Assembly: GCA_000182565.2 (NCBI GenBank) | Contig: KQ257453.1 | Source: Spizellomyces punctatus DAOM BR117 | Lineage: Eukaryota | Reading direction: 5' to 3' (one strand) | DNA length: 64,000 nt | Part shown: positions 30,272 to 52,005 of the stretch, piece after piece | Layout: each line of letters starts with the position of its first letter | How positions within the stretch are numbered: the first letter of the stretch is position 1 | Program-made: the position numbers and the translations under genes | Notes under the pieces: generated by a model | The model's input: the letters and a program-made list of their open reading frames with translations, nothing else | What the model was told of the DNA's origin: nothing | Databases searched by the model: none

Positions 30272-30429
30272 ATTACCACTAATTGCATAGTAAAGAGACG
30301 TCGCCTTTTTTTGCTGATGGTTCTTGTTACATATTTTTTCTTTCGTATACCGTCGGTCGTATGTCAGACTAGGAGAGATAAAAAGTGTACAGCAGCAGTA
30401 TTTTTGTCATCCTGGTGCCTTGTATTGCA

Positions 30430-30520
30430 ATTCAATTCAGTTGTTTAGTGTAGAGGTGACAGAAACTGGCACTAGCTACTACACCAGGGAATAAACCGGC
30501 GACAACCGGTTCGGAAAAGC
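30430..30520 (-). ncRNA. Fanzor omegaRNA-like scaffold (30520-30446) plus flanking guide
   Basis: GCUUUUCCGAACCGGUUGUCGCCGGUUUAUUCCCUGGUGUAGUAGCUAGUGCCA...CACUA is the same length (75 nt) as, and colinear with, the omegaRNA of element C (54064-54138). Confidence 0.8.
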
Positions 30521-31194
30521 TACTACTAGGCAATTATACACGCAATACGTAACGGTTGGTTCTAACCGGATAATTGCCCACCACCACACGCGGTCCCTAC
30601 TAGGCCTTGATCTGGAACTCTTGATGGCATTGAAGCCAGACTCTTGCATCCAGGAGCGAATCGACTGGGCAGCATCACAAGCCAGAGGATGTTCAGTGAC
30701 AAGACTTGGAGACTAAAACTGCATGTCAGCGACAGAATGACATGAAAAGAGATGATGCCATCGGTACATACCAACCAAGCTCAACAAATGTGGCAGCATA
30801 ATAGTAGGTTTTGTTATCAGATCCGATTGGTTGCCGCTGGTTCTGATCACGGTTGCTGTCGGGCGGTCGAGGTCCTCAACACCACCACATCGGCGTTCTC
30901 ATGGTTGACCGAGTCACGATGAGGTTGCAATGTGGGTCGCTATGAGGTCGCAATGAGCGTTTGTGCAGATGCTTGCGAGTCGAGGATGGGTAAAGAGGAA
31001 AGAGGGAAAAGGCCCCCCTTTTACAGACCTTTGGCATGCGCCTCACCGCAGTTTAAAAAAAAAAAAAAAAAACATTACAATACATGCCACACCGTTTTGA
31101 GCAGTAGATGGGGGTGCTGATTATGCGATATGATTAACCGGATTGAGCCGGATAATAATGAGTCCTAGTGCCATTTTCAATCACCTCCACACTA
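30446..31194 (-). mobile_element. Element A: non-autonomous Fanzor-family ('ghost') TIR element, 749 bp
   Basis: TIRs 30446-30475 and 31165-31194 match at 26/30. The promoter-side TIR matches the TIR of Fanzor element C at 23/30. CATA lies at its 5' junction on the minus strand (31196-31193). The body is homologous to element B. No Fanzor ORF. Confidence 0.9.
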
Positions 31195-31286
31195 TGCTGT
31201 GTTGTCATGTGACATGCCACGAAGCTAAGCACGCGCTTATTAGACGCACCACGTCGCAAGCACGTCCATCCACCAATTTCAACCAG

Positions 31287-34200
31287 ATGAGTGCAGACGA
31301 GGACCTTGCAGCTGTATGCATATCACAGTCACTTTTGCTCTCATTTATTTTGCTTCTTATGATGCTATACACATAGATCAACTATTTCTGTCGCAGGAAA
31401 CTATTCCATCATGCATATTCACTATGTGATGATCGCCTCAAGAGGAAAGTTGGTGATCCACTTCTTCTCTTCTGGCGGGCCGCTAGTACCGTGTTCGAAG
31501 GTAACTTTTATAAATATGATAAGCTAATCCTACATTTAACAACTCTGTTGTGCTCCCCTCAGGCCGCCCTACGGAAGCTCTTCGCGCCTTGGAAAGTGTG
31601 CAGGATAAGCGCGATTTCCTCCTAGCAGCGCCGATTGCGATGATTCATGCTCACGAGCGGTGTAAACTAGTTGGTACGCCCGTATGTCATTGTTTCACAA
31701 AGAAAGTTGGCGGTCTGTTAAGATGTAACAGACAGGGAAGCAATTCAAGAGCTTGAGGCAAAATTGACGATTGCCAGTAACTCACCGTCTCTAACCGACC
31801 GCGCTCATATACAAGCGGCAATGTTTCAATGGCACTGCGGCTTCCTTGACCTGGCCAAAGAGAACGTCAAGAAAGCGCTCGATATGAATTCCGGGTCTAC
31901 TGAGGCTTTGACGCTCATGGGATGGATCGACATGGCATCACCAAAAGATTCCGTCGCCGCGAAAGCACATACGTGGCTGGATCGTGCTTTGGAGAAGAGA
32001 CCTAAAGATTTGGAGGTACCGCGTGCAGTGAAGTGGGGTTGTTTTCCTCAATAGAACGGCTTACAGTGTATTCAAAACCGCAGGCTCTCATGGGTCGCCT
32101 GCATTACCTCCGACGACATCGTCGCCAATTAACTCCCGCTCTAGATATCACATCCCAAATCATTGTACACTATCCTGGTTTCATACCAGCTTACATCGAG
32201 CGGGTGTATGTATTGCTGGAAATGGGTGCTTGGGAACAAGTCAACGAAGCATCACAGCGGTTGGCAGGGTTGATGCCTGATAGCATAGATGCGATGATTG
32301 CCCAGTGCCTCAATCAGCTCTGCAGAGAAGGTGGATATGCAATGGCTGCATCTTACATTGCCAAGCTCAAGCAGGTGATTGATTTTGACTGATGGACGGC
32401 CAGTTGGGATGAAGTGTAATAATAATTTTTCTCAGACTCTAGATAGGCTGGAGCCTCACAATGCGCAACTGTATTATACTACTGCTCAGCCCTTTATTCG
32501 CCTGTCAAACCGCCTGGCAACGTGCGTTCTCTACCTATCATCTCCTGTCAATGGTTCATTCTAATCGGCTTGCTTGAACCTTATTACAGGGTACTGGACG
32601 GATGCACCAAGTTGCTGGAGAAAGCAATAGTTATCGAACCGGAAAATAGCGCTTATCGAACAGAGCTTGGTCATGTTCACTTGCTGTTGGGTAAGAAGAA
32701 TTGTTGCAGGTAACCTAGATATGGATGACTGAACCCAACAGAATAGAGGATTTACCGAGAGCAAGAGAAGCGTATCAACATGCTGCGTCCCTTGATCCAC
32801 ATTACGTTAAAGCTCTGGAAGGTTAGCTTCTTCTCATTAACAGTGTCCTAGGCAATTAATAAATCATGGCGATTTAGGCTTGATACGATGTCAGCTCCTC
32901 AGTGGGCACTTTGACGCTGCTGAAGAGCAACTAGAGCTGTTCAATGAATTTCAGATGGCAATGGGTAATAATGTGTTTTCATCATCACTGCTAGAACAAT
33001 GTCCGACTCACCAACCATGCAGGGAAATCTGCTGAAATGACTTATCTTTCTTCGGTTCTTGCGTGGTACAAGTACGGGGATGCCCGAAAGCGCCTACAAT
33101 ACCTCAAGGAAGCCGTTGAAATCGAACTACAGTTGATTAATGCCATGCCTCTCAGGTGAGCAAAAGATGAGGTCAGATAGTGAATTGAAGTTCCAAGTAC
33201 CTTTTTAATCCTGCTATAGTCTAGAGTACTATGTCCAGGTTAACCCGGACTTCCTCTTGGAGATGGTGAAAGACTACATGGAGCACTGTCCATCCGATCC
33301 CAAACGCGAAGGTAATCTCTTACTCAGTGTTGTCCAAGAAGGAACTTCTTACACCTCGTGATTATAGGAGAAGACGTGCATCCAATCATAAAGATTGTCC
33401 TGGACCTGTTGGAGGTCGTTTGCAAAGTGAACCCAGGCTCAGTTGAAGCTGTATATCACTTGGCCAAGGCGAAATTCCTAGCTGGGGACAAAGCTTCCGC
33501 GCAACTGGCCGCCGCAAGGTGCTTGAAGTTAGATAATACCTACCCGAAGGTGCCCATTATTCTTATTTTATGGTCAGAAAATACGCAACGGCTAATTTTC
33601 TCTGTAATTTCAGGGCTATGTCCTCATGGGCCAGATACATTTATATGATGGCCACGCAAAGCAAGCAATTCAGTTCTTGGAAATGGGATTGAGCTATAAT
33701 TTTCAAGTTCGGAATATCCCGCTTTTCCACATATTGAAGGCCCGCGTGCAGATAACGGAAGGCAATTATGATGAAGCACTTGCCACGTTGCAGACTGCCA
33801 TGAGTCTTCCCGGTATGAAGGAGCCAATGAGAGGTAAGTTCATCATATAGGAACCCTAGGAACTGGTTCGCAAACTTATTCATTGATTTGCAGAAGGAAA
33901 CCGGGTCCCGCGTATGAAGCGGCCAGATCACATCCCTTCTATACATGAGCGCATGACCTTATACCTGGAGCTTGTCGATGTGCACACGAAACTGAAGCAT
34001 GTCGTAAGTTCAAAGGTTTAGTGCTGCAACCCACAGTAATAATGAAACCGTCTTAATCCCACATAGAATGAAGCCGCAAAGGTTATGCAGGAGGCTGTGC
34101 AGGTGTTTTCGGGCATGCCTGAACAAGACCGGCTGGTAATGGCAAAGGCTGAATTGGCCCTCGCTAGGGGTGAAGTAGATGCCGCCCTCAACCAACTTGC

Positions 34201-36776
34201 GACCATCACCATGGATCAGCCGTAGGTCCAACTGTCATCTGTATACCCATGTAATGTGCGACATCAACTCTTTACTTGCTAGATATTTCATTGAGGCGAA
34301 GCGGCAAATGGCTGATATTTACCTCAAGTACAAAAATGACAAGAAAGCGTATGCCCGCTGCTACAGCGAGCTTGTCGAAAGGAACCCGACAGTGGAGAGC
34401 TGTCTATTACTGGGTGATGCTTATATGAATTTGCAAGAGGTAAGAGGCTACATCTTTTTGATATTTCCCCCGACACCCATCTGAATTTCTTCATCTTTCA
34501 TTCAGCCCGAAAAGGCCATCGCAATTTACGAGTCGGCAATGGATTCTAGTCCAGAAGCAAGCGTTTTGGCGAGCAAAATTGGCAAAGCTCTCGTTAGAAC
34601 CCACAACTATTCCCGCGTATGTTCCATGGCCACAGCCTTCAGATTTGGCCAGATTAATTAGAGATATGTTTCTAGGCAATAAGTTATTACGAATCCGCGC
34701 TTGCAAATGAATCTCCTATCGGCTCTATCCTGAGATACGACCTCGCCCAGCTATATAAAAAACTGCAGAGATACGATGATGCAGAAAAGATACTCACGGA
34801 AGCCTTGGAACATCCGCAAAGTATGGCAGGAATAATGGCAATTTCCTTCTTGCTAAAACTCACAATGCGTATAGCTGATGAAATATCCGACATCGAGCTG
34901 GATATTTCCTGTCAGACGCTTCTTGCACAGGTGTACCGATGCATGCAAAACCCAAAGAAAGCAGTAATGGCTTTACAGGAAGCACGCGATTTGCAAATGC
35001 GGTACGCTGACTTAAGTAATGCATCTTTAACTATCCATTCTGCCGCTCAACTGGATCTTTTAGGGTTTTGGCCAAAGAAGCAATGGCGGCAGATACCCGA
35101 CCACAGCGAACCAAATTGGCAGATATCAATTATGAGATTGCAGAGCTTTATTCCCGAGACCTAAAGGAGGTGGATAATGCCCTGACTCACTATAACGAGG
35201 CCATTGAAAATGATGAAGGCCACGCAAAGGTGCGAACATGGACTGAAGCAAACTTGCTTAAATATTTTGTATTTTCTTTCGTATTAATGTATTCACAACT
35301 GCAGTCTATTTTGGCAGTCTGCCAGATTTACCTTTCAAAAGGCGAGGTTGACTCTGCTCAACTACAATGCTCTAACTTGCTTCGCCTCGATACAACCAAT
35401 GAGGAGGCCACTATGTTGATGGCTGAGATCATGTATCGCAGTAATTCGCATGCAGAAGCAATCTTTCATTTTCGATCGCTTCTCGACCGCATTCCGACAC
35501 ATTACACTGCACTCGTTCGATTGATAGAGGTTCTGCGGAGAAGCGGAAAGTTGGACGAAATACCCAAGTATTTAAAACTGGCGGAGGAAAGTACGGTCAA
35601 GGTCAACTTGCATCCTGGCTACCACTATTGCAAAGGTCTGCATTACAGGTATGATTTTATGCCACACATTCAGTCGCAGTAATGTCAGCAGTTATAAACT
35701 CCATCTATTTTCTTGATAAAGATATTCAAATAGCCCGCATGAAGCGTTGAAGGAATTCAACTTCTGTCGGCGGGATACTGAATGGGGGGAGCGAGCATTG
35801 TATCACATGGTGGAGATCTTTCTTAATCCTGACAATGAAACGACAGGGGGAGAGGCACTGGAGGGGGCTGCCGACACTTCAGCCAGCGGCGGTAAGAAAG
35901 GCGACTCCGAACTATTAGCAATCTTGACGGCAGACAAGTTGTTGAAGGTAACCTTTTTCGTTTTTGACCAACACGACACAATCATGGTTAGCTGAACATT
36001 AACGAGTAGGAACTCCCTCAAAACCCAAAGTCGCTGCGAACGCAGGTTCTTGAATGTCACGCACTCATGGCAACAAAGCAGAAGGTTGAAATTGAACGTG
36101 CACTGGCCAAATTTGCAGAAATACTCAATACGGAGCGGGACTACGTGCCAGCGCTACTGGTATGTAACTTCTCTCCTTTTGCTCCCTCTTGAAAGAAGGG
36201 CTTCTAAGCCGCAATCGGCATGTATTAGGGTATGGCGGTGGGCTACATGCTGTTGAAGCAACCACCACGCGCAAGGAATCAACTGAAACGAATTGCTAAA
36301 ATGGAGTGGACAAGCGAGCTAGCTGATGATTTTGAACGCAGTTGGATCCTGCTTGCCGACATCTACATTCAGGTTTTGTTTTTGATTTTGTGGGAGGATG
36401 ATGCATCGAGGAACCAACAACTAATGCATCTCCTATATATCCCAAACAGGGTGGTAAATACGATCTAGCAACGGACCTTCTCAAGCGATGTCTGTCACAG
36501 AATCGCTCTTGCGCCAAAGCGTCGGAGTATTTGGGATTTATTATGGAGAAAGAAGCATCGTTTAAAGACGCAGCAGATCACTACGAAATTGCCTGGCAGC
36601 TCGATCGCGAAGCAAATCCCGCTATGGGATATAAATTGGCCTTCAACTATATGAAGGCAAAAAAGCATGTGGAGGCTATTGATGTTTGTCATAAGGTGCT
36701 AAAATTGTACCCGGATTATCCCAAGATGAGAAAGGAGATACTAGATAAAGCGAGGGCAAGCTTAAGATGCCCATGA
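31287..36776 (+). CDS. TTC21B: IFT-A complex TPR protein IFT139
   Basis: [61 protein letters not shown] and [25 protein letters not shown]...[12 protein letters not shown]. Confidence 0.95.
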
Positions 36777-36964
36777 AAGAATATTGTAGTTCCCTGTAAT
36801 TAAGAGCAAAAGAGCACATTAGAAGAAATCAGCCCACCCTCAACGGTCCTTGTAGCTCATCGCTTGAGTGCGCGTTTGTCGCAACGATTGAGAGTTAATG
36901 TACATTCTAATGTTCAGATAACTACATGCTCCCCGAGGTTTCATGCTCCAGTCCCCCTTTCATT

Positions 36965-38464
36965 TCAGATCGTGTCCGCACCCCTTGCTCCTACTGTGTT
37001 GCCTTTGCCTTTTGGATCACCATCCTCAGCGTGCATGCTGAAGACCCTATGCATGAGCGCAACAAAGTCCCTCGCATGGGGACCACTCTGCAAATCATCT
37101 GCGACACTACATATGTCTCTAAAAAGCCAATGCAATCCCAGATCCGGTCGCAATTTCGCCGAGCAAGTCTGGATAGCGGGCATAAAGCGTGCTCTCTTTT
37201 CAGTGGTAGGAGGAGTTTCCTCTGTTATTTCACTTTCCGAATTGAGCGTATGCGCAGCGTCCAGCGCCCTTTCCTCCGCCGCTGGAGAAACATGCTCTTC
37301 AGCCGAGGGGGTACTGTGCTTTTGTACTTCCGTCGCTAGATCGGAATCTACCAACATTTTCTCCAGAAGGGTGATGCTGGAGTCATCGAGCAGCTGTAAA
37401 TGAGTGCGAATGCGCTGCAAAATGGGCTCTTTTGAGCGGAACCATCGAAACCCATGTTCACCGCGAAGAAGACTAACGCAGTCCGGCATGTGATGCAAGC
37501 CAGCAACCATGCACAGCCTGGGAATCGCGACAATTACGATGGGATCAAACGTGTGAATTTGATTCCATGCTATGTAGCCACGTTGAACAGATCTTAGAAT
37601 CGTCTCGCTCATTAGAACCTAGGGCATTCAATTAAAATGAGTGACAAATACAATTGTGACTTGATAAATATTTCGCTTACTTGGAACATGTCCAGATCGT
37701 CAAACCGTCCCGGTCGACCATGATACGAAACGGAAAAGTAGCAAAAACAAATTTTTTCTTCGAATGCTGCCCATGCTTGATCAAAGTCTTTTAGGACGGG
37801 GTACAGGTCAAGATATGGAGATGACGAGCATGTCAGCGCCCTGGTACGAAACGCGAACCGAAGAGCGTCCATTGCAGCGTGCAATTGTCTTGCTGGTTCT
37901 ACAAGCTCTTGGGTAAAGTGCTCAATTCCTCGGATGCGGAACCCTCTACTCAATGCTTGGCAAGCAAATAGAATATTTTCGCTGAAGCCCCCTTCTAACT
38001 CTCTTTGATCTTCTGGCGGTAAGCGGGTCCGATAGTCTCGGGACGTTTTCAGGTCTTCATCCATGTCCATATAGATAAGGTATATTGTCTCAAGGAATAA
38101 GCGCTGGGCATGATGAACTCTCTCATTCCGCCTCTTGAATTTCTCTGAATTTGTGTCACGAACTTTTTGCAATGATATGACAGATTTCGTCAAGTGTTGA
38201 TCTGATGCAGGTAGGTCATATAATAATCCTTGCAATTGAAATTCATCTGTGTGTGTACGAACCTGCATACCAAAACAGGCTCAGCGGCTGCGTTTCGTTC
38301 AGTCTTGGAGGAATTTCATTCTCAAGGGGCCTCCAAGCACAAAATTGAAATATTTGGGCAACGGTGTAGCCACCCGGGGGAGGTAAGGACGTTTGCGACA
38401 AACGTCTTTGCGATCTTGCTGACCTAGGGAAGCTGGTACTCTCTGTTGCTGACTGTGGAGCCAT
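36965..38464 (-). CDS. LST2/ZFYVE28 N-terminal helical-domain protein, no FYVE finger seen
   Basis: SLFWYA/DEF, SRDYRTRLP, ENILFACQAL, LKDFDQAWAAFE, VLMSETI...FDPIVIVAIPRL and ICSVADDLQSG match recalled LST2 motifs. Confidence 0.7.
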
Positions 38465-38653
38465 CGTCAAGTAACCTCCATTGGGCAGCAGACCATCCTG
38501 CTTCTGACACGTTCACCGATTCTTACGTCAGCATAGTCCCGCGTCCTTTGGTTGCTTACGTTTTCATGAGCAGCGTGAGATGCCCACGTGATCACAAAAC
38601 CAACGCGTGGATGTTGCGGGAACTGCGTGCCCTACGCCCATACCAGATCAGCG

Positions 38654-39816
38654 ATGAGTGCCACATACGGGACAGATGCAAATGCGGGCTTTGAACCTTA
38701 CGAATTTGGCGAGTTTGGTGGACAAAGCGATGAAGCTGAATTTTTGAAGGGCACGGGAAGAGGGACGGCGGGTTTTGCGGGGGACTTGAGTTCCCCAACT
38801 GTCTCTATTCCGGTATCTGGGAACATGGGCCCCGCTGGGAATGGGCCGACACCTACCTTAGATACGCTCGACGAACCGGTGTCAGCTACTATTGTTAGTA
38901 GGGCTTCCAAGTATTATACCCAGCGAGTATGTCCATAAACTGACCCTTCGTGCCGCAGCTTAGAGACCTTCGTAGCATTTGGGGAAAACTGCGACAAGTG
39001 CTGTTACCGAAACAAGACAGCAAAAACATTTTGAGAGATTGTGAGTATTAAGGGGACCGAAAAGTTCTTGGCTTTATGCGTTAGTTGCCGGGAGCCCGTA
39101 AACGTGCTTTTTTAGGGGATCTATGGGGACCGCTCCTTTTGTGTCTCGCTCTCTCAATGTACGATATTCCATTATGGAGTGGACTCGGATCTTGTTGGAT
39201 AACATGCCTGCATTTTTAGACGATTGACTATCAAAGCGCCACAAGATCAAATACCCCAGGTCTTCACTGCTATTTTTGTGATTGTTTGGTGTGGTGCGGC
39301 CGTTGTCACGTTGAACTCCAAACTACTCGGAGGAACCATGTAAGCTTTCTGGAATCTTGCGAGTACTGTATACGGTTAGCGACATGAATGTTCTGATCTA
39401 CCGGCGTCTATTGCCGCATAGGTCCTTTTTTCAAAGTGTCTGTGTCCTCGGCTACTGCATATTTCCCCTCGTTATTGCCGCTATTATCAGCCTTTTTGTG
39501 CCACTGATTGGCCGCGTTGTATTAGTCAGCGTCGCATTCGCGTGGTCTGTATATGGTACGTGCAAGAAGCCCGAAGTGCAGTGCCGGCTTGTTTTCGGTT
39601 GTACTAAGGTCGTGCATTGTAGCTTCGGTTAGCTTTCTCTCAGATGTCAGTCTAAACCAACGAAGAGCATTGGCATTGTACCCAATGTGCCTTTTTTATT
39701 TTGTCATTGGATGGATGGTACGCATTGTATTTATGTACGTGTCCCCGGTTCTGGATACTGACCGACCTCCTGTAGGTTTTGATTTCAAAGTCCTTTTGGG
39801 AATCGGCGCCATATGA
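38654..39816 (+). CDS. YIP4: Yip1-domain Golgi protein (Yip4/YIPF6)
   Basis: DTLDEPVSATI/LRDL, LRD/WDLWGPL, VVTLNSKLLGG, SFFQSVCVLGYCIFPL and RRALALYP. Confidence 0.9.
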
Positions 39817-39912
39817 TGGCACTCCTTAAATTGCTTGAAACAATCAATAAGGGCTTTTTCTAAAGATCTCTTCGAGTCACATATCCTATCAATATAATGC
39901 ATTGTAATGCCG

Positions 39913-42900
39913 CTATCTGTGATTGCCTGTGAAAATAGCTCGAGTTGGCGGACGATAAATTGTCGTAAGCCTTCTGATGTTCGCACTTACCAACAATATC
40001 CTCTGCTATAAATGCATTGAAATAGTAGATTCCAAGGTTATTCTTCAATGCAATTTGAATCAAATTGGGAGGGTCCATTTTCTGCACGCCACCGGACGTG
40101 CTCAACCGTAATAAGACATCTGCGCTCTGATTTGGCGCTAATGGCTCGGGAACCTGAAGGGAGGCTGCAGGTGTGATACCGTATCTAAATTCCAGCCAGG
40201 ATAAGGCGTTTAATCTAACATTTTGGAAACGGCATGGCAAGTGCGAAGACTTACGTATTAGTGTTGAACTGAATTGCAAATTCAGTCATTGGCCCTGATG
40301 TTCGGTTCGCAAAACTTAGCTCCAGATAGAGGTCCCCATTCCTTCTGGTGAAGGCTCCTTGCACGTCGAGCCCCTTTGCATTGGCCGAAGTCAAAAAGGA
40401 GACCTTTGGAGTTGTGCTAGTCGCGCCAACCATAGGCTCAAAGCCGCCGGGTTGATAGGTAGGGGTAGATGTTGAGGGAGATAGGTCAGTAAGCCCAAGA
40501 AGATCGTCAATGGCGCTTGTTTGTGTCCTCATTGGTGGAGGTGTGGCAACTGCAGGAGACCCTGCAGACGGACCACCAAAGTCGAGATCGAGGAGATTGT
40601 CAATACCGCCACCGACCACAGCGTTCACCTGGGCTGCCACTGTGCGTGCGTCGACCTCCGGCTCCTCGCCTTCCAAATCAAGGCTAAAGGGGAAAAAGAA
40701 GGTGGCGTGAACAAGAGTGATAAGAAGACCATCAGCCACATTTGTGCAAATAATATACTGTACTAACACTTCTCGAGTACGACCAATTTCCACGGAGGTA
40801 CCTCCAAGGAGTGAAGGTGACTTGTGGTAGACAGAGGCAAGACTTCCGATATTATGGAGTAGCTCATCTAGTAATGATTCACTGACCGTAGCAGTGTCGG
40901 CTTCGATTGGGGGTTTCTCCGCCAAGACTACAGCCTACAATGGGAGGTGCTGAGTTTACGCTCGTAATGCATGTAGATCGTCTCCACAAACCTTCGCAGT
41001 TTGTGGATTACTCGATAAGAGTCGCCAATATATGTAGGCTCGATCCCGAATATCTGGGTTATCGCAGCCTTGGGTGGCCGTAGTCAGAATTCGTTGAACA
41101 ATCTCTTGTGCAGCACCCGGTTTCTTCAAAAACAATTTGACGGAAGCCGAGATAAGCTGCAGCTGAACCTAACAAAAGATAAGCACACATTGATATTGCG
41201 ATGCGGCCGAATCTCTTCTGTAACGTTCTCGGATCCATACCATAGATGTCTCATCTTTAAAACCCTCCAAGAAAAACTCTAGCAGCTCAGTAGCATTGTC
41301 AATTCGGTCGGCATATTCGCCAACAATCCAGATTAGAGAAGCTTTTGCTTCTGGTTCGTCCAATGTATCGAGGTTTTCGCACAGAGCGGGTATAATACCC
41401 TCATATCTATTTGGGTACTTGCGAAAGATATCCTGAAACAGAGAGCGATAAGCAAATAGCTCATATAACGAGTGTATGATAGTTGAAATCACCTTGATGA
41501 CGACAATAGCCTCCTGCACAACATGGCTGACCTTTGTCTTGATCAAATCAAGCAAAGCATTCACACATTTTTCTGATGCTGATTCAATCTTCACGGCACA
41601 CCGTCCTATGGCACCGACAGATTTTCGTACAAAATCGACATCCACCTCGTTCGCATACCTATGAATATTGCGAGGCCCAAAGTTAGATGTTTCATCGGAA
41701 TGAAAAATCAATCTCTTCTCACTCCCGTAGTTCGGATAACACTTGGTCGACATTCTTGTCGGAGCATAACTTGATTATGACTTCCAATTTCTCAAGTTTC
41801 ACGTAGGGCGGATCATTATATTTAATGAAGAATACTCGAATTTCTTGATTCAGAACGTCCGCCCGTTTTTGAAGAATCAGATTGATGTTTCGCAAAGCGA
41901 CATATTGTATCTCCGGCTCTGATGACAGTAAAGTGACTGTACACAAGTTATTTCAATCAATAGTCCCGAATGCGAAATTTGCCAGGCTAGCCATTACCTA
42001 ATGGGGGAGCCATCTTCCTTGTGATTTGCTTTAAAAGTTCGTCATTAGTGATGAATTCCAGGTAGATCATCAACACCTAACAGTTCGTACGAATGATTGT
42101 ATCAGTCACCTGCTGTCCAGACTGACAGAGCGTAGTAACGCGAACCCACCCTCACTGCCGACAGCACAACACTGGCATTGGCATGTTGCAACCGGGGCAG
42201 TACCCGCTCCGCGATATCGCCCGCCTCACGAGTGTCATGCGGACGATAACTAGCTAACGAATTAAGAATGCAGATTTGGCCCCATCTGTAGGAAAATAGA
42301 ATCCATTAGATAGTGAAAATCAGTCGGAAAGGCGTGTGCTTACTCTGTGCATTCATTCAAAGCCGCTAACAGTTTCGTGAGTATGCTTCTGTTGACGACA
42401 AATACGTCACGCCGAACAGAAGCTTCACTAATTTCGGCAAGCGCAGCGACAGCGTTCGCAATCACCTATTTCAGGCAGTTGCAAATGCGGCCCAAGGATC
42501 AGGATGCGAACGCATACCTGAGTCGAATGTAACTCTCAGCCATACCATTGGATTTCTATCTGAGAGCATGTCTTGAACGATAGTAATCAGACCGTTGTCA
42601 ATCGCAATCATAGGTGAAAGGTCGTAGAGTTTGGCCACGCACAAGGCTGCGGTCTTCCGGACATATGGGTCTTCGTCCTACGGTAGGGGCTTAACATACT
42701 TGTCGCAAAATCGCAACAATAACTTAATTTGACAACATCAACCTTTAATCCCTTCTTCAATGGCTCCAATAGATAATCAATTATCTTCTCCACTCGTAGC
42801 ATACCCATCGTCCTGATTGCGAGCGCACGAATCAACGGGTTCACATCGTCTGTGTCCTGTTGACAAGATTAACTTCTGTCATAGTTAGGGCTAAAAAGTT

Positions 42901-43282
42901 CACTTTTTAACCTTAACGAATGTGTTCACGGCCAGAATAACGAGTTCTGGCTGGGTCCTCGCGTAATTGATGAGGTAGAGGTAGACCAACTTCTTGAGTT
43001 CAAGATCCTCCGTCTGCATGTTCTTGACCACATCCGCAAAAAGACTGCTGACATCTTTTCCTATAGTCATATTGGCAATGACCTTTTTGACGGTCTCTTT
43101 TCGTTTCTCTCTGTATTCACTGTTTAAATCGGCTTTCAATTCAAAGTTCTCGCCTGTTGGGGGTAATGGGTCGCCACCATTAGGAGCGTGCCATGGGCCC
43201 ACGCGACGTTAACTGTGGCCGTTGAGATCCCACCTTTCTTCGTCGTGGAGAAAAACTTTGGACCCCGCACCGCAGCTGCCAT
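39913..43282 (-). CDS. APL2: Clathrin adaptor beta-adaptin (AP-1 beta, Apl2-like)
   Basis: [16 protein letters not shown]...[17 protein letters not shown]...[53 protein letters not shown], clathrin box LLDLD and an appendage segment. Confidence 0.9.
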
Positions 43283-43424
43283 CTTGAAAGTTATGTTGGG
43301 AAAAACAAAATGTCTAGGATTGCCCCCACGACGGTTCACACAATGTAACTGCTGTGCCATTGGCTTACGTAAGATTGGAGCTATTATTTTGGACCAAAGA
43401 AAGTTGGGGACATGGCTATGGGAG

Positions 43425-45006
43425 CTACACTACAACCCCAGCTAGCGCCGGCCGGGAACGATCCGTCAAGTAGACATGCCCATCATCATGTCTTTCTCGC
43501 TCTAAAGGCATCCAGGGCACCGCCGGGCAGCGTGGAATGGGTTTAGGGGTGTATTGCGAGCGCATAGTCGTCCCCCAGTCCCGGTCGTCGTGCTGTGGAT
43601 TGTAAGTCGCCCTTGGTCTGAAGTCAGCCTCGCGAGTTTGGTGTGCGGGAGGCTGATAGTCCAGGCGGTGTGTGCTTGTCGCATCAAACTTTGTTGGAAC
43701 CGCTTGGTACTTGGGGACAATGCGCAGAAGCCTCTCCACCGTTTTCGGTTGATAGTTATCGTGGTCTGCAGGCAACCTTGTGTCAAAGTTGCAGTCAAAC
43801 AGTAATAAGAGGACAAAGCTTACATGTAGTAGAATCCTGGAAAACGGATTGGTTAGGAGTGTATATAGCCTTTTTCTTCGGTTCCTTGGTCGGTAAGGTC
43901 CAACGGCGGAAGCTGTCTCGATTGGTGGTGACACCTTCAAACTTTACCGGAGACACCACATACGCTTGACGGGGAGCCTAAGCACTTGAATGAGGAAGGA
44001 GGCCGATGGAAAATTAGGAAAGAAAGGGTATACCATGGACAAGGAACTCCTGGGTAACTGATGACCCACGTATGTGGCGCCTGTCGTCGACTTAAATTCC
44101 CTGTGCTCGCCTTATATAAACGTCGTGAAGTAGTGCCAATCAAGGTTACAAAATTACCTGTCTTCTGTTGGACTGACGTAGCTGGCTACCTCTCGAGACT
44201 TTGCTGGAGGAGGAACAGGCCAAGCGCGATAATCTGCATCGTGCGTCGTTACACCTTCAAATCTGGTATTAGGTTTGAGGTAGTCAGCAGCCTTTCGAAA
44301 GGGCCTGGACTGCAATTCAAACGGGCGGAAGTCCCGTCTGTTGGTGGTCTGGCCATCGAATTTGGCTATGAAACAACTACCGTCAGCAGAACCTCAACAC
44401 ATCAGAATGTGGTGTCAATGCTCACCGGTGTTCTCAATATGGTTTGCTTTGGGTCTCATTGATGATACAGTGGTGATTGGCCAAGCAGGAAAGTCATGCT
44501 TCTGAGTAGTGGTAGAATCAAACGGAGCGTCATTTCGAGCATATACGACCTTTTTGGGCTGGCGGTACGCATGAGAATGGCGCTGGGCGGAGATACACTT
44601 TAACCAAAGTACTTACCGGCATCTGCGGGGGAAATGCGTGAGCTACAAACTTTTCCCGACTGTCTCCAATAAAGGGTAGTTTAGCACTTGATGATACATT
44701 TATCAGATCGAGTGGGGAACATCTCATACTTTTCAGTAGAACCATAAAAATCCCCTCCAATTGAGAGCTGCTGGGGATGGGCCTTTCCCCGCAATCGTCT
44801 CTCCGTCTGATACTTCACATAATTGTCTCCATATTCTGGAAGGATCTTATGTTTTAACAGAGCCCTGCCACAAAATGAGACATGTTCTTACCGGTATGAG
44901 CGTCAAGATGCCCTTCCACAGTTCTTGCAACTTTGCACAACTTATGCCTGCCGCAGGTGCAAACAGCGCAGATGCATTTTTCTTCATGCTTCCTAGAATC
45001 ATGCAT
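43425..45006 (-). CDS. Axonemal microtubule-stabilising protein SAXO/FAM154 family
   Basis: N-terminal KCICAVCTCGRHK signature and repeated Mn motifs (FDSTTTQKHDF, FDGQTTNRRDF, FEGVTTHDADY, FEGVTTNRDSF, FDATSTHRLDY). Apparent 1-nt frameshift near 44752. Confidence 0.85.
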
Positions 45007-45174
45007 TGTAGGAAGCGCCAATCTATTCCAGTGTTGACCCGAGTACGAGAAGGTTGAAGCAAGGTCTTCCAGGGGATATATCAGCTATTCATTCATGCAA
45101 CTTATATTCGATCGGCCAAAAATCAAAAAATAGCATCGGGGAATTTGACGATTAGCTGTAGGTAAGCAGAACGC

Positions 45175-45389
45175 GTGACTAAACCCTTCTTTAGTGTGCA
45201 GGTGGTAGAAAATGTCACTAGGGACAAATTCTCCCTCCAACCCACTACAGCCGGTTCTAATTTACAATTAGCCAGCCTGTCCAACCCTTCATAACCTATC
45301 CTGCAAACGAGTCCCACCCCATCCTAACTCGCTACAGATTCCGGCCTGGGTTGAACTGGGGTACGTGCAAAGCAGCACGATTCCACTAA
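45175..45389 (-). ncRNA. Putative novel structured RNA (candidate alternative omegaRNA) plus flanking guide
   Basis: Occupies the omegaRNA position of element A. Several nested stems found by eye and a terminal CUAGUG...CACUA pseudoknot potential. Confidence 0.55.
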
Positions 45390-45919
45390 CTACCACTAGG
45401 CCCAATTACACATGCGATACATTACGGTTGTTTCTAACCGGGTAACTAAGCCCACCACCACGAGAGAAATCCTACAAAGCCTTTGATTCCGAAATTCTTT
45501 AGTCGGAGGATGTTCAGATACTAATTAAACCAGAATTAGACTCGGAATCCGCGTGGGAAAAATCAGCAAGATATACCTGCGATCGTAGCAATATAGTAGT
45601 AGCAGCGTTTGCAAGGGGTTATGTTGTTGTTGTCGGGCGGGCGAGGTCCTCGACACCAGAGCAGTATTCTCATGGTGGACTTGAGAGTTGAGCGTTGGGC
45701 AGATGCTTGCGAGTCGAGAATGGGTAAAGAGGAAAGAGGGAAAAGGCCCCCCTTTTATAGACCTTTGGCATGCGCCTCACCGCAGTTTAAAAAAAAAAAC
45801 ATTACATGCATGCCTCACCGCTTTGAGCGATAGATGGGGGTGCTGATTATGCGATATGATTAACCGGATTATCCGGATAATAATGGGTTCTAGTGCCATT
45901 TTCAATCACCTCCACACTC
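45192..45919 (-). mobile_element. Element B: non-autonomous TIR element of the same family as A, 728 bp, with a different 3' RNA module
   Basis: TIRs 45192-45221 and 45890-45919 match at 25/30. The segment ~45690-45919 is nearly identical to ~30955-31194 of A, with patchy homology down to 45390. The 5' junction reads CAGA instead of CATA. Confidence 0.9.
45690..45800 (-). promoter_or_regulatory. Pol II-type promoter of element B: T11 tract, TATAAAA (45759-45753), CT-rich stretch
   Basis: The minus strand reads T11...CTATAAAAGGGGGGCCTTTTCCCTCTTTCCTCTTTACCC. The same block is in A (T18, TGTAAAA at 31025-31019). Confidence 0.6.
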
Positions 45920-45939
45920 TGCTGGAACTGGTTCGGTCA

Positions 45940-47012
45940 ATGGACATGCGCGAAATGGGGAATGGTTCCCAACAGGACAGTTCAGATCCGTTCGGGGCAT
46001 TCGACATTGACGAAGCAGATTTGGAGCCACTCTATCATCAGGACCGGCTATGCTGTCCACAATGCAGACGAAATCACAAAGTTTTTTGCCCCCGCTGCGG
46101 TAATAACGACAAGACTGGCACCCGCAAAAGAGAAGGGAACTCACTTTTCTATATGCCTTTCTTACTTTACTATAGGCATACCATTAGGCCATACACCTCC
46201 CCATGTCCAATTGCCGATATCTGTGGACATGTATGTTCGACAAGCAGTGTTCTAAAGCTATGACACTCATTCTCGTCGTGCAGTTACCGTGACCCGCGAG
46301 AAACTGAGGGCAAAAGTACGTCAGCACATGCGCGCATCATTGCGCCTGATTCAGTTACAATTAAGGTATGCCTCTGCATGTCGTCCGTCATGTACCAGAA
46401 GGCCAATATAAGTATGGTTGTAGGTAGAAAATATGGTGAAAGCGCCGGATACGTCGAGCATTACAAAGTATACAGATCCGCAACGATGTCTTCTTCTCTT
46501 TCCCTCCGAGGTGTGAGCTGCATGATTTGGCTTCTGACCTGTTGCTGTGTTTGTCATCGATTCCTTCATATGGCTAGGATGCCCTACCGCTAGCTGACAT
46601 AGAGCCAGGTTCTTTCGACAAACTGATTGTGCTTGATGGAACGTGGAAACAAGGGAAGGCGATGGCTGGTGCAATAGCTGGTCAGAGCTTTCAGAGAGTG
46701 TCTATCCGAAGTCGCCGGACCCTCTTTTGGCGTTACCAGCCTTTTGGAGAGACCTACCTGTCGACGATTGAGGCAGTGTACTGGTTCTTTCGAGACTTTC
46801 ATGACGCATATAGCAGAGATCCTTACGATGGTCGCTACGACAATCTATTATTCTATTTTAAACTGCAGTGGGGCCTGATTCAGGACATCTATTCTAGAAA
46901 TCCACAGAAACAGTTCACGTCAAGGAAATTGGATGGGGAAAGTTACATCCGGGGAAGGGCGAGACTGCAGAATAGTGCGAGTCCTCCTGATACGGAGGAA
47001 GCGCAAACTTAA
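45940..47012 (+). CDS. DTWD1: tRNA-uridine aminocarboxypropyltransferase (DTW domain)
   Basis: CPQC...FCPRC, EGKSTSAHARIIAP, LLLFPS, LIVLDGTWKQG, TLFWRYQ, YLSTIEAVYWF and YDNLLFYF. Confidence 0.9.
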
Positions 47013-47177: not shown

Positions 47178-50100
47178 ATGTTATCACATGTAGAGGGCTT
47201 AATAGCTGAGCAAGTGAGTATTCAAGCAGCAGGCAAACTGAAACAGCCATCGCCTATGCTGATTTATCTCATGCCAGCATCCCGAAGGTGCTCGACCGCG
47301 CATGGTCATTTCGAAAATGGTTCTCAGAAATTTCAAGTCGTACGCAGGGACGGTTGAAATAGGGCCGTTTCATAAGGTTTGAGTGACCTATTTCAACAGC
47401 AGCTACCAGTAAACGCTTATCAGTTTGCTTTTGCCAGTCCTTCACCTCAATAGTCGGCCCCAACGGGTCTGGAAAATCGAACGTTATTGACTCGCTCTTA
47501 TTTGTGTTTGGGTTCAAAGCGAAGAAAATGAGACAAGGAAAGCTATCTGAACTCATTCACAACTCCACACACCACCAGAACCTAGATAGTTGCAGTGTCG
47601 AGGTGCACTTCCGCGAAATAATAGACCTGGTATCTTTGAAATGATAATATTCCCTTCATCTTATGTTTACAAGAATTCTAATGCTAGTATATGGATAGCC
47701 AGGGCCGGATGCTTTTAGCATGGTCGAAGGCTCTGATCTCGTTGTGTCACGATCTGTTGAACGAGGCGGGAGTGACAGAGCGCCAGATAAGAGCATCTAT
47801 CGGATCAATGGACGGACGAGTAGTTTCACAGAGGTGACCGGCCTGCTAAAAAGTAAGGGTGTTGACCTGGAGCATAAGCGGTTTTTGATTCTTCAGGTAG
47901 GTGCTGTGTCGATTCTTAAATTTATAGGTGCGTATGACGAATACTATTGACCAAAGGGGGAAGTGGAGTCAATTTCTCTCATGAAGCCCAAAGCCCAAAA
48001 TGAACATGAAGATGGGCTGCTCGAGTATCTAGAAGACATCATTGGAACCTCCCGCTATAAACAACCCATCGAAGATGCAAACAAGCAGCTCGATGAACTA
48101 AACGAGGAACGTTCAGAGAAGCTGAACCGACTAAAATTTGTGGAGAGGGATAAGAAGTCATTAGAGGTACATGAACTGTCGTCTTACTTTGACGCATTTC
48201 GTGCATTTGCAAATCTCAAGTTCTTGCTCTGTTTAAAATAGTCGAAAAGAAAAGACGCCGAAGACTTCATTCACACAGAAAATCTGCTTAAGAAGAAGAA
48301 GAATGCACTCTATCATATTTACCTCGCCGAGTGCACCCTTGAAATTGCCAGCCTTAGTTCCACCATAGAGTCCCTAAATGTCAAACAGGAAGGCGAAAGC
48401 CGGAGGTTCATGACGTTGAAAGAAGAAGTGAACTCGTTGGAGGAAAGACATAGTACCATACAGAATGATTACAATGTAATGACATAGTATGAGATCATAT
48501 GCTTTATGACTTGCTGACGGCTTTGATCAGACTATAGCAGCAAAGGCCAAATCAGTTCGGGACGAACTGCAACGATATGATCGCGCGGAGGTCGAACTTA
48601 AAGAAAAGGAAGCACATCTGCAAAAGAAGCTGAAAAAGCTTTCCAGTGCCCTTCACAAAGTAGGACCTAGTAATTTCTTTCAGGTGGATGCCAATGCTGA
48701 TAGAGTTGCAGGAGAGTCTGCAGCGTTCGGAGAATGAAACTTGGATTCGCAACTTCGATGCGGATATGGAGAAAGCCACAATGGAGGCTGGTGAGCTGGC
48801 ATCACGACTTGCCGCCGAGGAGAAGGCACTCGAAACAATCAGGGAAAGTCTAAAAGGTGTCTATCTAGGATGTACTGCATAGTAGAGGACTGAGCTGATG
48901 CAAGTGTCATAGGCAAGACGGAGGTCTTTCAAAAACAGATCGAAAAGAAGCAGGAAGAGTTAGCTCCCTGGATGGAGAAAATAAATGAAAAGCAAGCGGC
49001 ATTAGACGTTGCGTCATCGGAGAGGGAACTACTAGAGCAGAAAATAACATCTTCGAAAACTGCATTGAAGGAAGCTGAGCAGAAAGTTGTGGAGCTTCGC
49101 GCTTTACTTGGGCGGAAGGTAACATTGTTCCTCGACCGCTGGTCGTTTATTCTATTAAAATTTTTCAAACATGAAACTATACAGCAAAAGGAGCTTTCGC
49201 TAATACGGGAGTCGCAAGAGGCTCTGGAAGCGAAAAACATAAGTCTCCAGAAGGCAATGCAGGAGTGCACGATTAAGGAACAGGACCTGCGCAAATCTGT
49301 CACGCAGTCACGGCAGAAGGCGGACGAAGCGAAGGTGTCCCTGCAGGCAGCTCAAACCAGAGGCAAAGTGCATACAAGTTTAATCCAGCAGAGCCACACC
49401 GGCAGAATTCCAGGGATCTGTGTGAGCATCAGCCAGAGGAACTAATCATCCTATCTTTTCCTGTTGGCTCAATTATCACTTAATCCTAGGGACGGTTGGG
49501 AGACCTTGGCGTGATTGATGATGCCTACGACATTGCCGTCACCACCGCATGCGGCGCCCTCGATGCAATTGTCGTTGATACGGTAGATGCGGGACAGCAA
49601 TGCATCGAATTTTTGCGAAAGCAAAGCCTTGGCCGCGCAACCTTTATCTGCTTGGACAAGCTTAAACAGGGAAATCGAGAGCCCATTGACACTCCCGAAA
49701 GGGTCCCCCGTTTATTTGACTTGATCAAACCTAAGCATCCCAAATATGCTCAGGCTTTTTATCAAGTGCTGCAAGATACTTTAGTGGCAAAAGACTTGGA
49801 GCAAGCGAATCGGATAGCTTTCGGTAATTCGCGACGGTATCGCGTTGTTACGCTTGATGGACAGCTTATTGACACTTCGGGGACCATGAGCGGCGGAGGA
49901 AACAAACCACAGCGTGGGGGAATGAGCTCTAAATTTGCAGCTGACGGGGTCACGCAAGCAACTGTGGTCCAACTCGAGAAAGAGAAGGAACAGATTGAAG
50001 GGGTGTTGCAAGAGCTGCTCGAGAAGCGCCGCCAGTTGGAGCAGCAGATTGATGAGTGTGGACGCCAGCTGCCCGCTGTTGAGCTAGAATTGACAAAAGT

Positions 50101-51993
50101 TGAAATGGACGTGAAGTCGCTGCAGGAAGGGTTGGCGGATGCAGAGAAGCATGCAGAGATTGTCAGGTACGCTGGATGGCAGCAATTGTGCCGCATGAAA
50201 ATGTGTTCTGATCTAGTTGATAGAACTCAACAGCAAGGGCCGAGTACCGAAGACCTGTCTCGCCGCGACGAACTCAATAGCATTATATCTAAGCTCACCA
50301 AGCAGACAAGTAATCTGCAGGAAAGTGCGACCGTAATTCAAGAAGACATCAAGGAGCTACAAGGCAAAATTCTCGAAGTCGGCGGGGTGCGGCTAAGAAC
50401 ACAACAAGCGAAGGTTGATGGAGTTAACGAAGAGATTGGCATAAATAACACGAGAATGACGAAGCTGCAAGTGGAGCGGTCAACAAGAGATAAAGCAGTG
50501 GCTAAGATACTGAAAAGTATTCACAAGAATCAAACTGAACTCGACAGTGTTAAGACAGAAATCGAGAGCATCGATGCAGATCTGGAGCGTCAACGGTCCG
50601 CAGCTAGTCAAGTGAAGGGGAAAGTTCAAGAGGCTCAGCAGGTTGATTGAGAGTGGCGACCTGGTGACTACATTCGTCATTCATCTTTATCTATTCAATG
50701 TTTGCACAGGTGCTGGAGACGAAGGAAACAGAGCTGGAGCAAATAAAGGAAATACTTGACGTCAAAACAGAAGAGATAAACGAAATGCGCAAACTTCAGG
50801 TATCCTAGATGCAATTAAAAATCCTAGCAAAGTGTAGGTCTCATTAACCTTCCGATCAGGTCGAAACTAAGGCACAGCTTGAAAGAGCGAAGGAGGGATT
50901 GGCAACCAAATTGAAACAACAGAAGTATTATCAAAACGAAATTTCGTGTAATCTTCGATTACAGTCAACTGGGTACGTTTCTAATAGTATTTGCCTTTGA
51001 GCTACGCAGTCATTTATGCAATTGTAGGTTTGAGTCAGATGACGAGGACCTGGAGCTCGAGCAGTACACAGCCGAACAGCTGGGCGCCTTGGACAAGGAA
51101 GAAGTGGAAGCGGATATTCAAAAACTTCAAGGTGAGTGCATTTTCTGTGTACCTTGGCCTTCTGATTTATCCTAAATCGGTATTTTACAGCCAAAGTGAA
51201 TGAGGGGACCCCAAACCTGACCGTTCTCGAGGAATACAGGCAGAAGCGTGAGGCGTATCTCGCACAAGCAAAGGTGTTGGAGGAGGTAACTCTACGACGT
51301 GATGAAGCAAAGAAGTCTTACGACGAGCTCCGGAACAAGCGGCTGGCTGAATTCATGGAAGGCTTCACTGCTATATCACAAAAACTGAAGGAAATGTATC
51401 AGGTCCGTGCTCTTTCTCAATTGGTCAACATGTTAATACCATCGCCACGTTACTGATGTGGCATTTCAGATGATTACTCTTGGCGGTAACGCCGAACTAG
51501 AGTTGGTTGATAGCCTGGATCCCTTCTCCGAAGGAATTATATTCAGTGTCATGCCGCCCAAGAAAAGCTGGAAGAACATTTCGAATCTCTCTGGTGGGGA
51601 GAAAGTAAGCAACCTAGAACAAGTGGGCCTTTAGTAAATTGCAGAAACATCTGACGCTCGCGCTTCGATAGACGCTAAGTTCGCTGGCTCTGGTGTTTGC
51701 ATTGCATCACTTCAAGCCGACGCCTCTCTACGTAATGGACGAGATCGACGCGGCCCTCGACTTCCGTAATGTCTCAATCGTGGCAAATTACATTAAAGAA
51801 AGAACGAAGAATGCACAGTTTGTAATAATTAGTTTGCGAAACAATATGTTTGAGTTGGCCGATCGGTTGGTAGGGATATATAAGGTACGTTATGCTGGTC
51901 TTTTTCTAATACATAGGCATCCCTCTCACTTGCTTAACTTAGACGGATAACACGACGAAAAGTATCACCATTAACCCTACTGCTGTTGCCTGA
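47178..51993 (+). CDS. SMC4: Condensin SMC subunit 4 (Smc4/Cut3)
   Basis: NFKSYAG, IVGPNGSGKSNVIDSLLFVFG, RFLILQ/GEVESI, hinge GRLGDLG...GTMSGGG, NLSGGEK and PTPLYVMDEIDAALD. The start could alternatively be the in-frame ATG at 47103. Confidence 0.95.
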
Positions 51994-52005
51994 TATTAGT
52001 GTACA

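Follow-up and report, generated by a model that had tools for sequence, protein, structure and literature searches.

In bacteria, the guide RNAs of TnpB nucleases are cut from the nuclease's own messenger RNA (mRNA). To our knowledge, the transcription and maturation of guide RNAs for Fanzor, the TnpB-derived system of eukaryotic cells, are largely unknown, and the published Fanzor work that we know of expresses its guides from artificial promoters. The present analysis concerns a window of 64,000 nucleotides (nt) from the chytrid fungus Spizellomyces punctatus DAOM BR117 (contig KQ257453.1), to whose positions all element coordinates refer, and three elements within it. Two of these, A and B, are "ghost Spu-1" elements, that is, non-autonomous, Fanzor-less relatives of the SpuFz1 transposon of this fungus, and the third, C, bears a Fanzor gene. 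We found that a GT..AG segment in A, and another in B, is a real intron that is spliced from RNA. "Ghost element" and "ghost omegaRNA" are terms of the published literature. Saito et al. 2023 (PMC10432273) counted 42 Fanzor loci and 134 loci that have Fanzor-like repeats and lack a Fanzor open reading frame (ORF). It was described there that the ghost interior is conserved over about 550 nt, that CA stands upstream of the left repeat, and that a 75-nt 3' region resembles the omegaRNA of Fanzor loci except at the tip of stem 2, which differs. In the same work the 75-nt ghost omegaRNAs of four loci other than A and B guided SpuFz1 in human cells.

Compared with this description, A fits all features of the ghosts and B fits all but the similarity of the scaffold, whereas the interior is treated in the available part of PMC10432273 only as a "conserved region", with promoter, exons, intron, three-way junction and gene models not mentioned there. 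The canonical SpuFz1 locus (Spu-1; Bao and Jurka 2013, PMC3627910; PDB 8gkh), as far as these sources were available, has the same type of ends, the same TA flanks, a scaffold at its right end and a guide derived from the flank. In Spu-1, however, the omegaRNA lies behind a single-ORF Fanzor gene, presumably on its mRNA, and in the ghosts an unrelated cassette of promoter, exon, intron and exon stands in its place. IStrons, in which a group I intron, TnpB and an omegaRNA are combined (PMC10690162, in the part available), likewise place an intron and a guide RNA together on a transposon transcript, but there the intron is self-splicing, extends across the element and is in competition with the guide, whereas the ghost intron is spliceosomal and lies upstream of the guide, with no competition evident. 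Introns within Fanzor protein genes were reported by Jiang et al. 2023 (PMC10530073, in the part available); like the ghosts, these genes represent a TnpB-derived system adapted to eukaryotic expression by spliceosomal introns, but they are interrupted within the nuclease ORF, whereas the ghost intron sits in a guide-only element without a nuclease gene. Neither the main text of PMC10432273 nor that of PMC13434818 contains the word "intron", and in the literature searched on Fanzor, ghost Spu-1 and Spizellomyces introns no mention was found of a ghost promoter, intron or splicing; the supplementary ghost alignments of PMC10432273 may already show the pattern. Ghost elements and working ghost omegaRNAs are known; the new part, of which we found no mention, is the ghost locus as a spliced transcription unit.

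Small nucleolar RNA (snoRNA) host genes yield small RNAs from spliced host transcripts of RNA polymerase II (Pol II), and arthropod RNase P RNA is reportedly made from a Pol II intron (PMC6797745). Like these, the ghosts would combine a spliced Pol II transcript of low coding content with a small structured RNA product, but in the snoRNA and RNase P cases the small RNA is usually intronic, whereas in the ghosts it would form the 3' end of the last exon and reach into the flanking DNA.

The three elements are located as follows.

30446 to 31196, minus strand: ghost Spu-1 element A, repeat to repeat 31192-30448, including CATA at 31196-31193 and TA at 30447-30446.
45192 to 45921, minus strand: ghost Spu-1 element B, repeat to repeat 45917-45194, with CAGA preceding the left repeat and TA following the right one.
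52004 to 54138, plus strand: Fanzor-bearing Spu-1 element C, with the ORF at 52167-54050 and the omegaRNA scaffold at 54062-54136.

We assigned A and B to the published ghost Spu-1 because both have Fanzor-like inverted repeats and a Fanzor remnant is absent from both. The inverted-repeat arms of A (31194-31165 and 30446-30475) match one another, those of C are 97% complementary over 34 nt, and the ends of A and B align mutually and resemble those of C. A and B have TA at their outer edges and, on the left, CA two bases beyond it; this CA upstream of the 5' repeat is kept in A (CATA, 31196-31193), B (CAGA, 45921-45918) and C (CATA, 52004-52007); the CAGA of B, as against CATA in A and C, means that the TA duplication or TAM-like (target-adjacent motif-like) sequence at its left flank is mutated. 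A tblastn search with the Fanzor of C gave no coding remnant in A or B, the best other matches (E about 0.4) lying elsewhere, and no similarity of A or B to C was found outside the ends. Sequencing data were available as Logan contigs of four runs (X1, X2, X12 and X13), which were compared on 30300-46100; the small shares of ghost sequence in runs X3-X11 and X14-X24 were not counted as evidence. The kinds of X1, X2 and X12 were taken from coverage and not from records, the RNA label of X12 being a guess, while X13 is an RNA sequencing (RNA-seq) library of a root metagenome. X1 and X2 act as DNA, with long exact flank contigs, and are deepest over the left end and promoter region of the ghost family. 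In these two runs the contigs split into differing flanks precisely at 30446 and 31196, the edges of A, and depth was 23-167 on A and B (B: 23-128) versus 0-3.3 in 26 inter-element bins, as expected for a multicopy family.

The introns and their exons, on which the main finding rests, are these.

30713 to 30771, minus strand: intron of A, 59 nt, with GTATGT at 30771-30766, GCTGAC at 30730-30725 (branch-like A at 30726) and TTTTAG ending at 30713.
45521 to 45576, minus strand: intron of B, 56 nt, with GTATAT at 45576-45571, TCTAAT at 45540-45535 (branch-like A at 45536) and AATTAG ending at 45521.
30772 to 30955, minus strand: exon 1 of A, its 5' limit being the furthest RNA contig and not a mapped start.
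45577 to 45673, minus strand: part of exon 1 of B, from the ATG at 45673-45671 (context CCACC-ATG-A) to the donor.
30581 to 30712, minus strand: proximal exon 2 of A, with a 12-mer shared with B, CTGAACATCCTC, the rest being unalignable with B.
45194 to 45520, minus strand: exon 2 of B, with the 12-mer, a three-way RNA junction (45454-45397), about 125 nt of extra sequence and a divergent 3' end that holds the right repeat.

Both segments have the signs of U2-type introns, for which we required a CTRAY motif at a distance of 10-30 nt ahead of the used AG, together with removal of the segment from RNA and its presence in DNA: GT..AG ends, a branch-like CTRAY (CTGAC in A; CTAAT in B), a TAG acceptor and a host-like size, the RNA-supported host introns being 58 and 73 nt long with similar signals. 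Motifs alone would be weak, as a lax intron model marked 17-31 segments in 2 x 64 kb versus 12.4-22.7 in shuffles, a rate of 0.13-0.24 per kb per strand in the window. In X12, one contig (depth 36.4, shorter side 45 letters) joins 30712 to 30772 and skips 59 nt with GT..AG on the minus strand, and X13 contigs with loose ends at 30772 and 30713 continue into sequence of the other exon. In X13, one contig (shorter side 34 letters) joins 45520 to 45577 and skips 56 nt with GT..AG on the minus strand, exactly the segment that had been predicted for B in a preliminary description of the window made from the letters alone. Three further paralog contigs of X13 use the donor at 45577, the replaced letters being paralog versions of the start of exon 2, and the shorter side of the X13 joints at 45577 reaches 67 letters. 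As a positive control, X13, which contains S. punctatus as judged by 139 nt of a host gene (42147-42285) that it matches exactly, joins across two neighbouring host-gene introns (42073 to 42147 and 42285 to 42344). At positions 30719, 30739 and 30741 of the A intron depth was 0 in X12 and X13 versus 16-45 in X1 and X2, while exon positions nearby had a depth of 70-134 (X12) and 10-34 (X13). In X1 and X2, where the intron is covered, splice-like joints were not found. As the joined forms occur in X12 and X13 and the intron is kept without joints in the DNA-like runs, the GT..AG segments of A and B are real introns, and the transcripts are not merely present but spliced.

For A, the preliminary description had the donor GTATGT and the intron itself right, but it ended the intron at 30719 (53 nt), and the RNA joint uses the AG at 30713 that had been named there as an alternative. 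The 53-nt version was rejected, since no joint of 30718 to 30772 was listed, and the unused CAG ending at 30719 is only 7 nt from the branch-like A and is variant or missing in some paralogs. The X12 contigs among the matches listed, besides the 30712-30772 joint, are confined to 30520-30697 and 30772-30955 (the pieces on exon 1 being 30772-30865, 30789-30865 and 30852-30955). Contigs of X12 and X13 cover 30526-30713, including proximal exon 2 of A, and a contig of X13 covers 45191-45434 and then runs 70 letters onward into another flank, across the right end of B. Parts of ghost sequence occur in the root and soil metatranscriptomes X13, X17, X19 and X20, and X13, the one of these compared here, has spliced ghost RNAs as well as exact host-gene pieces.

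Around the introns, the following features were recognised.

30956 to 31164, minus strand: promoter region common to A and B, as shown by direct repeats of 105, 82 and 52 nt that are 87-97% identical.
31072 to 31055, minus strand: 18-T run in the promoter region of A, followed by a TATA-like box and a CT-rich stretch.
31025 to 31017 in A (TGTAAAAGG) and 45759 to 45751 in B (TATAAAAGG), minus strand: TATA-like box.
30527 to 30580 in A and 45397 to 45454 in B, minus strand: conserved three-way RNA junction of a closing stem and two hairpins, 54-58 nt.
30448 to 30522, minus strand: 75-nt omegaRNA scaffold of A, which overlaps the right inverted repeat.
30433 to 30447, minus strand: putative guide of A, the 14-15 nt of flanking sequence that read-through beyond the scaffold would add.

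The promoter region of A sits just inside the left inverted repeat. Identity between A and B, the two genomic copies compared at the DNA level, was judged against shuffled sequence (200 shuffles for the intron interior). The left end and promoter are identical at 219 of 242 positions (shuffles 135.4 +/- 3.8) and the RNA block at 55 of 71 (shuffle mean 38.9). Over the intron interior 30 of 50 positions agree (shuffles 28.9 +/- 2.0), so that the interiors are as unalignable as had been claimed beforehand; proximal exon 2 (127 nt in A versus 60 nt in B) gave 50 of 127 (shuffle mean 48.2), and the last 77 nt gave 49 of 77 (shuffles 44.4 +/- 2.2). The 12-mer CTGAACATCCTC follows the used acceptor at a distance of 16 nt in A (30696-30685) and of 3 nt in B (45517-45506), and both introns do stand, as the preliminary description had placed them, upstream of it and downstream of the shared TATA and CT-rich region.

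The three-way junction is predicted to fold alike in A and B, both alone and inside the whole of exon 2. It has 2 compensatory pairs, one from U-A to C-G in the closing stem and one from C-G to U-A in hairpin 2, and a paired 2-base-pair insertion; the pairs were taken from the single-sequence folds because RNAalifold put the 3' strand of the closing stem out of register. These changes, seen between two sequences, are suggestive of a conserved RNA fold but fall short of proof. The scaffold of A has 84% identity over 56 nt to C (54062-54117), the same two-stem predicted fold and another stem-2 tip, and it fits the ghost omegaRNA as described in the available part of PMC10432273, in which transcripts run 14-15 nt past the 75-nt region; the putative guide of A is placed on that basis. 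In B only the repeat and short motifs of the scaffold align with C, and B probably belongs to a different ghost scaffold clade, its last 77 nt aligning with A and C mainly in the repeat. About 125 nt of B (45265-45390, minus strand), between the RNA block and the right end, are absent from A. As judged by sequence comparison, the conserved set is made up of the left end with the promoter, the splice signals and the three-way RNA junction, to which the 75-nt omegaRNA scaffold is added in A. Rfam gave nothing at the gathering score in the window, and a sub-threshold match to mir-2072 (E = 0.16) was taken as chance.

Searches with translated pieces of A led to four gene models of the public S. 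punctatus annotation that derive from paralogous ghost loci, SPPG_09412 (80 residues), SPPG_08830 (105), SPPG_09407 (144) and SPPG_09019 (258). All four break at 30774/30711 or show a gap of 20 residues there, as in P0040 (residues 1-43 on 30902-30774 and 47-95 on 30706-30560) and P0044 (1-79 on 31037-30774 and 81-120 on 30711-30592). The ghost intron junction is therefore already implicit in four models that are labelled uncharacterized proteins, and a lack of splice signals in other copies, which the preliminary description had set as the finding that would tell against it, was not what we saw, since the four models and the spliced paralog contigs share the junction. The contigs also contain joints of A-like and B-like modules by way of short replaced stretches (30520 to 45388, 30546 to 45459 and 30803 to 45626). 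As these occur in the DNA-like runs and in one RNA run, they point to mosaic paralogs and to modular recombination between the subfamilies.

We consider it somewhat probable that the TATA-driven, spliced Pol II transcript is the precursor of the ghost guide RNA. Spliceosomal splicing implies Pol II, from which we infer the polymerase; of the precursor role put forward in the preliminary description, the splicing stands and Pol II follows from it, while excision of the guide is our inference. The conserved T-run, TATA-like box and CT-rich stretch would drive a transcript starting downstream of about 31017, and the absence of X12 contigs from the promoter, which reach 30955 and have depth 0 on the B bin 45583-46100 versus 85 and 128 in X1 and X2, fits such a start. 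The U2-type intron (59 nt in A, 56 nt in B) would then be removed, exon 2 would bear the three-way junction and then the 75-nt scaffold at the right end, and read-through past this end would supply a 14-15-nt guide from the flank. From this spliced precursor the ghost omegaRNA would be cut out and loaded onto Fanzor protein made in trans by elements like C. The likeliest benefit of splicing would be the stability or export of an otherwise non-coding RNA, allowing it to meet newly made Fanzor. The step from RNA block to scaffold is seen in an X13 contig that joins a B-like block to an A-like scaffold (30520 to 45388, shorter side 41 letters).

Several points weigh against this proposal. Contigs show neither single molecules, starts, ends nor strand, so that continuity from exon 1 to the guide is beyond them; none of the X12 pieces among the matches listed lies on the scaffold (30448-30520), though contigs cannot prove absence, and the missing X12 cover of B and of the scaffold is a gap in the data rather than a finding. 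The promoter, intron and RNA block are retained in B, whose 3' end, however, resembles that of A barely more than chance, and the conserved transcript could have a role other than that of a canonical omegaRNA. The frame of exon 1 from the ATG to the donor is open in B, and it is open in A but for one private stop; public annotation, moreover, calls four paralogs protein-coding. An ATG at 31037-31035 in A and 45771-45769 in B (GCGC-ATG-CCAAAGG), inside the conserved promoter and upstream of the TATA-like box, is the start codon of models P0042 and P0044, in conflict with a start downstream of the box, and a low-depth X13 contig (2.1) lies on 45759-45918, the upstream side of the presumed start. 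Lastly, the comparison at the DNA level rests on two genomic copies.

The proposal can be taken further, to a reading that we hold only tentatively and as a whole: ghost Spu-1 elements may be guide-RNA genes that mimic mRNA genes, in which a mobile, spliced, TATA-driven Pol II unit carries a decoy or vestigial ORF and the structured RNA domain with the omegaRNA is the sole selected payload. Splicing would be needed for stability or export and then for loading onto Fanzor made elsewhere, and the promoter and splice sites would be kept because a copy would be restored after excision only if it expressed the guide specific to its own flank.

Of the competing explanations, the one that survives best is that transcription and splicing are real but are a functionless relic of the source sequence, the ghost omegaRNA, if made, coming from other transcripts such as read-through from neighbours. 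Transposon copies decay neutrally, and young copies retain ancestral signals by descent; furthermore, the chimeric paralogs (30520 to 45388 and 30546 to 45459) are present in DNA-like and RNA runs, so that recombination and not selection could explain the near-identical 240 nt at the 5' end, and the 3' end of B is divergent. However, both subfamilies preserve donor, branch and acceptor around an intron interior whose identity has fallen to that of shuffles, the promoter and splice signals are kept along with a structured RNA block that shows compensatory changes, and the X13 contigs with the 41-letter side run from the RNA block into the scaffold. There was also no X13 depth in the bins beside A (31354-32407), and so no sign of neighbour read-through, which is a weak point as contigs were used. 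Taken together, we regard a functionless relic as rather unlikely.

It was also considered that the spliced transcript is the mRNA of a small protein, of about 80-144 residues in public models, in which case the intron would be that of an ordinary coding gene. The ATG has a good context in both copies (CAACC-ATG-A at 30902-30900 in A; CCACC-ATG-A in B), A and B share the reading frame of the exon-1 peptide motifs W-C-R-G-P-R-P-P-D and Y-Y-Y-x-A-T in spite of indels, and several of the changed codons in these motifs are synonymous by eye. The TGA at 30878-30876 (codon 9) of A is a private mutation of this copy, since all depth at 30878 in all four runs reads CGA, and four paralogs are annotated as proteins. 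Beyond the junction, however, frames and C-termini differ: P0044 reads in frame -2, P0040 in frame -1 before a shift, P0039 shifts after ...GCK, P0042 is shifted already in exon 1, and the shared 12-mer is read in different frames by A and B. Proximal exon 2, with its unequal lengths, is alike only to the level of shuffles, and the 11 listed paralog variants in the coding part of exon 1 of A include about 3 that are synonymous and one that is TGA to CGA, which is near the neutral expectation. A HMMER search with P0039 against 1.84 billion representatives gave 5 matches at E <= 0.001, 3 of which were S. punctatus ghost models; P0041 and P0043 (E 3e-14 and 1e-6) were rejected as relatives, being long proteins of repeated segments that were judged unrelated. 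In line with this, a cassette captured from a host coding exon was rejected, as no protein relatives were found outside the ghost models. The frame is not conserved among the diverged copies (A, B, P0039, P0040, P0042 and P0044), which share the short exon-1 peptide alone. As the frames after the intron differ among copies, a conserved ghost protein is unlikely, and the mRNA explanation as a whole appears improbable to us, although by its sequence a short exon-1 peptide may be produced from ghost elements.

The weakest alternative, by which the GT..AG segments would be motifs that arose by chance, with the joined forms coming from intron-less DNA copies or assembly artefacts, could appeal to the frequency of such motif combinations (0.13-0.24 per kb per strand), to the use of contigs for all runs and to the guessed label of X12, but it is close to refuted, as joined forms occur in two runs from different samples and studies, at exactly canonical boundaries and in several paralogs, are absent from the two DNA-like runs, in which the family has a depth of 60-170, stand in X12 without the promoter, which is the family part of highest DNA depth, and are matched by joined host-gene introns in X13 and by an intron in four annotated genomic paralogs.

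The Fanzor frame of C, with which the ghosts had been contrasted as an intronless route, is indeed a single ORF of 627 codons, but it is broken by one in-frame TGA at 53262-53264, and the public model skips a segment around it. The frame is 96% identical to SPPG_02771 of S. punctatus DAOM BR117 and scores 1209 bits against PDB 8gkh chain P, SpuFz1; its identity was settled by these two, as Pfam gave no significant match. SPPG_02771 (605 residues) lacks 22 residues around the TGA of C, skipping 66 nt (53232-53297, plus strand) that begin with GTATAT and end with AAG. Within these 66 nt lies the stretch V-V-I-D-P-N, which we take to be the first RuvC motif. The skip is either an annotation device that bypasses the stop or a real intron giving a nuclease-dead form. 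In stem 1 of the omegaRNA of C, GGTTCAATTCC at 54085-54095 (plus strand) resembles by eye a transfer RNA (tRNA) T-arm or Pol III B box, its counterpart in A reading GGTTTATTCCC; an ARAGORN tRNA scan found no tRNA. Upstream of C lies a putative multi-exon gene (48894-51950, plus strand), the 3' end of which is about 50 nt ahead of the left end of C; by eye only, it has an SMC or ABC-type signature (L-S-G-G-E-K), and C was inserted just behind it. In a metagenome scan with a 20-nt promoter word no ghost copies were found among 7 loci, 6 of which had only 21-25 nt matching; blastn listed nothing for locus L001, and all 7 were taken as chance.

Ghost loci are about three times as numerous as Fanzor loci in S. 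punctatus (134 vs 42, from the available part of PMC10432273). If ghosts are spliced Pol II genes, the conservation of the approximately 550-nt ghost interior would be explained, a testable path from transposon to mature guide in a eukaryote would be at hand, and natural cassettes of Pol II promoter, intron and scaffold would be available for guide expression. The four "uncharacterized proteins" of public annotation are probably guide-RNA precursors, and should the ghosts prove to mimic mRNA genes, they would provide the first natural example of a DNA-cutting nuclease whose guide RNA depends on the spliceosome for its biogenesis. Our results suggest that ghost guide-RNA genes are expressed like ordinary spliced genes.

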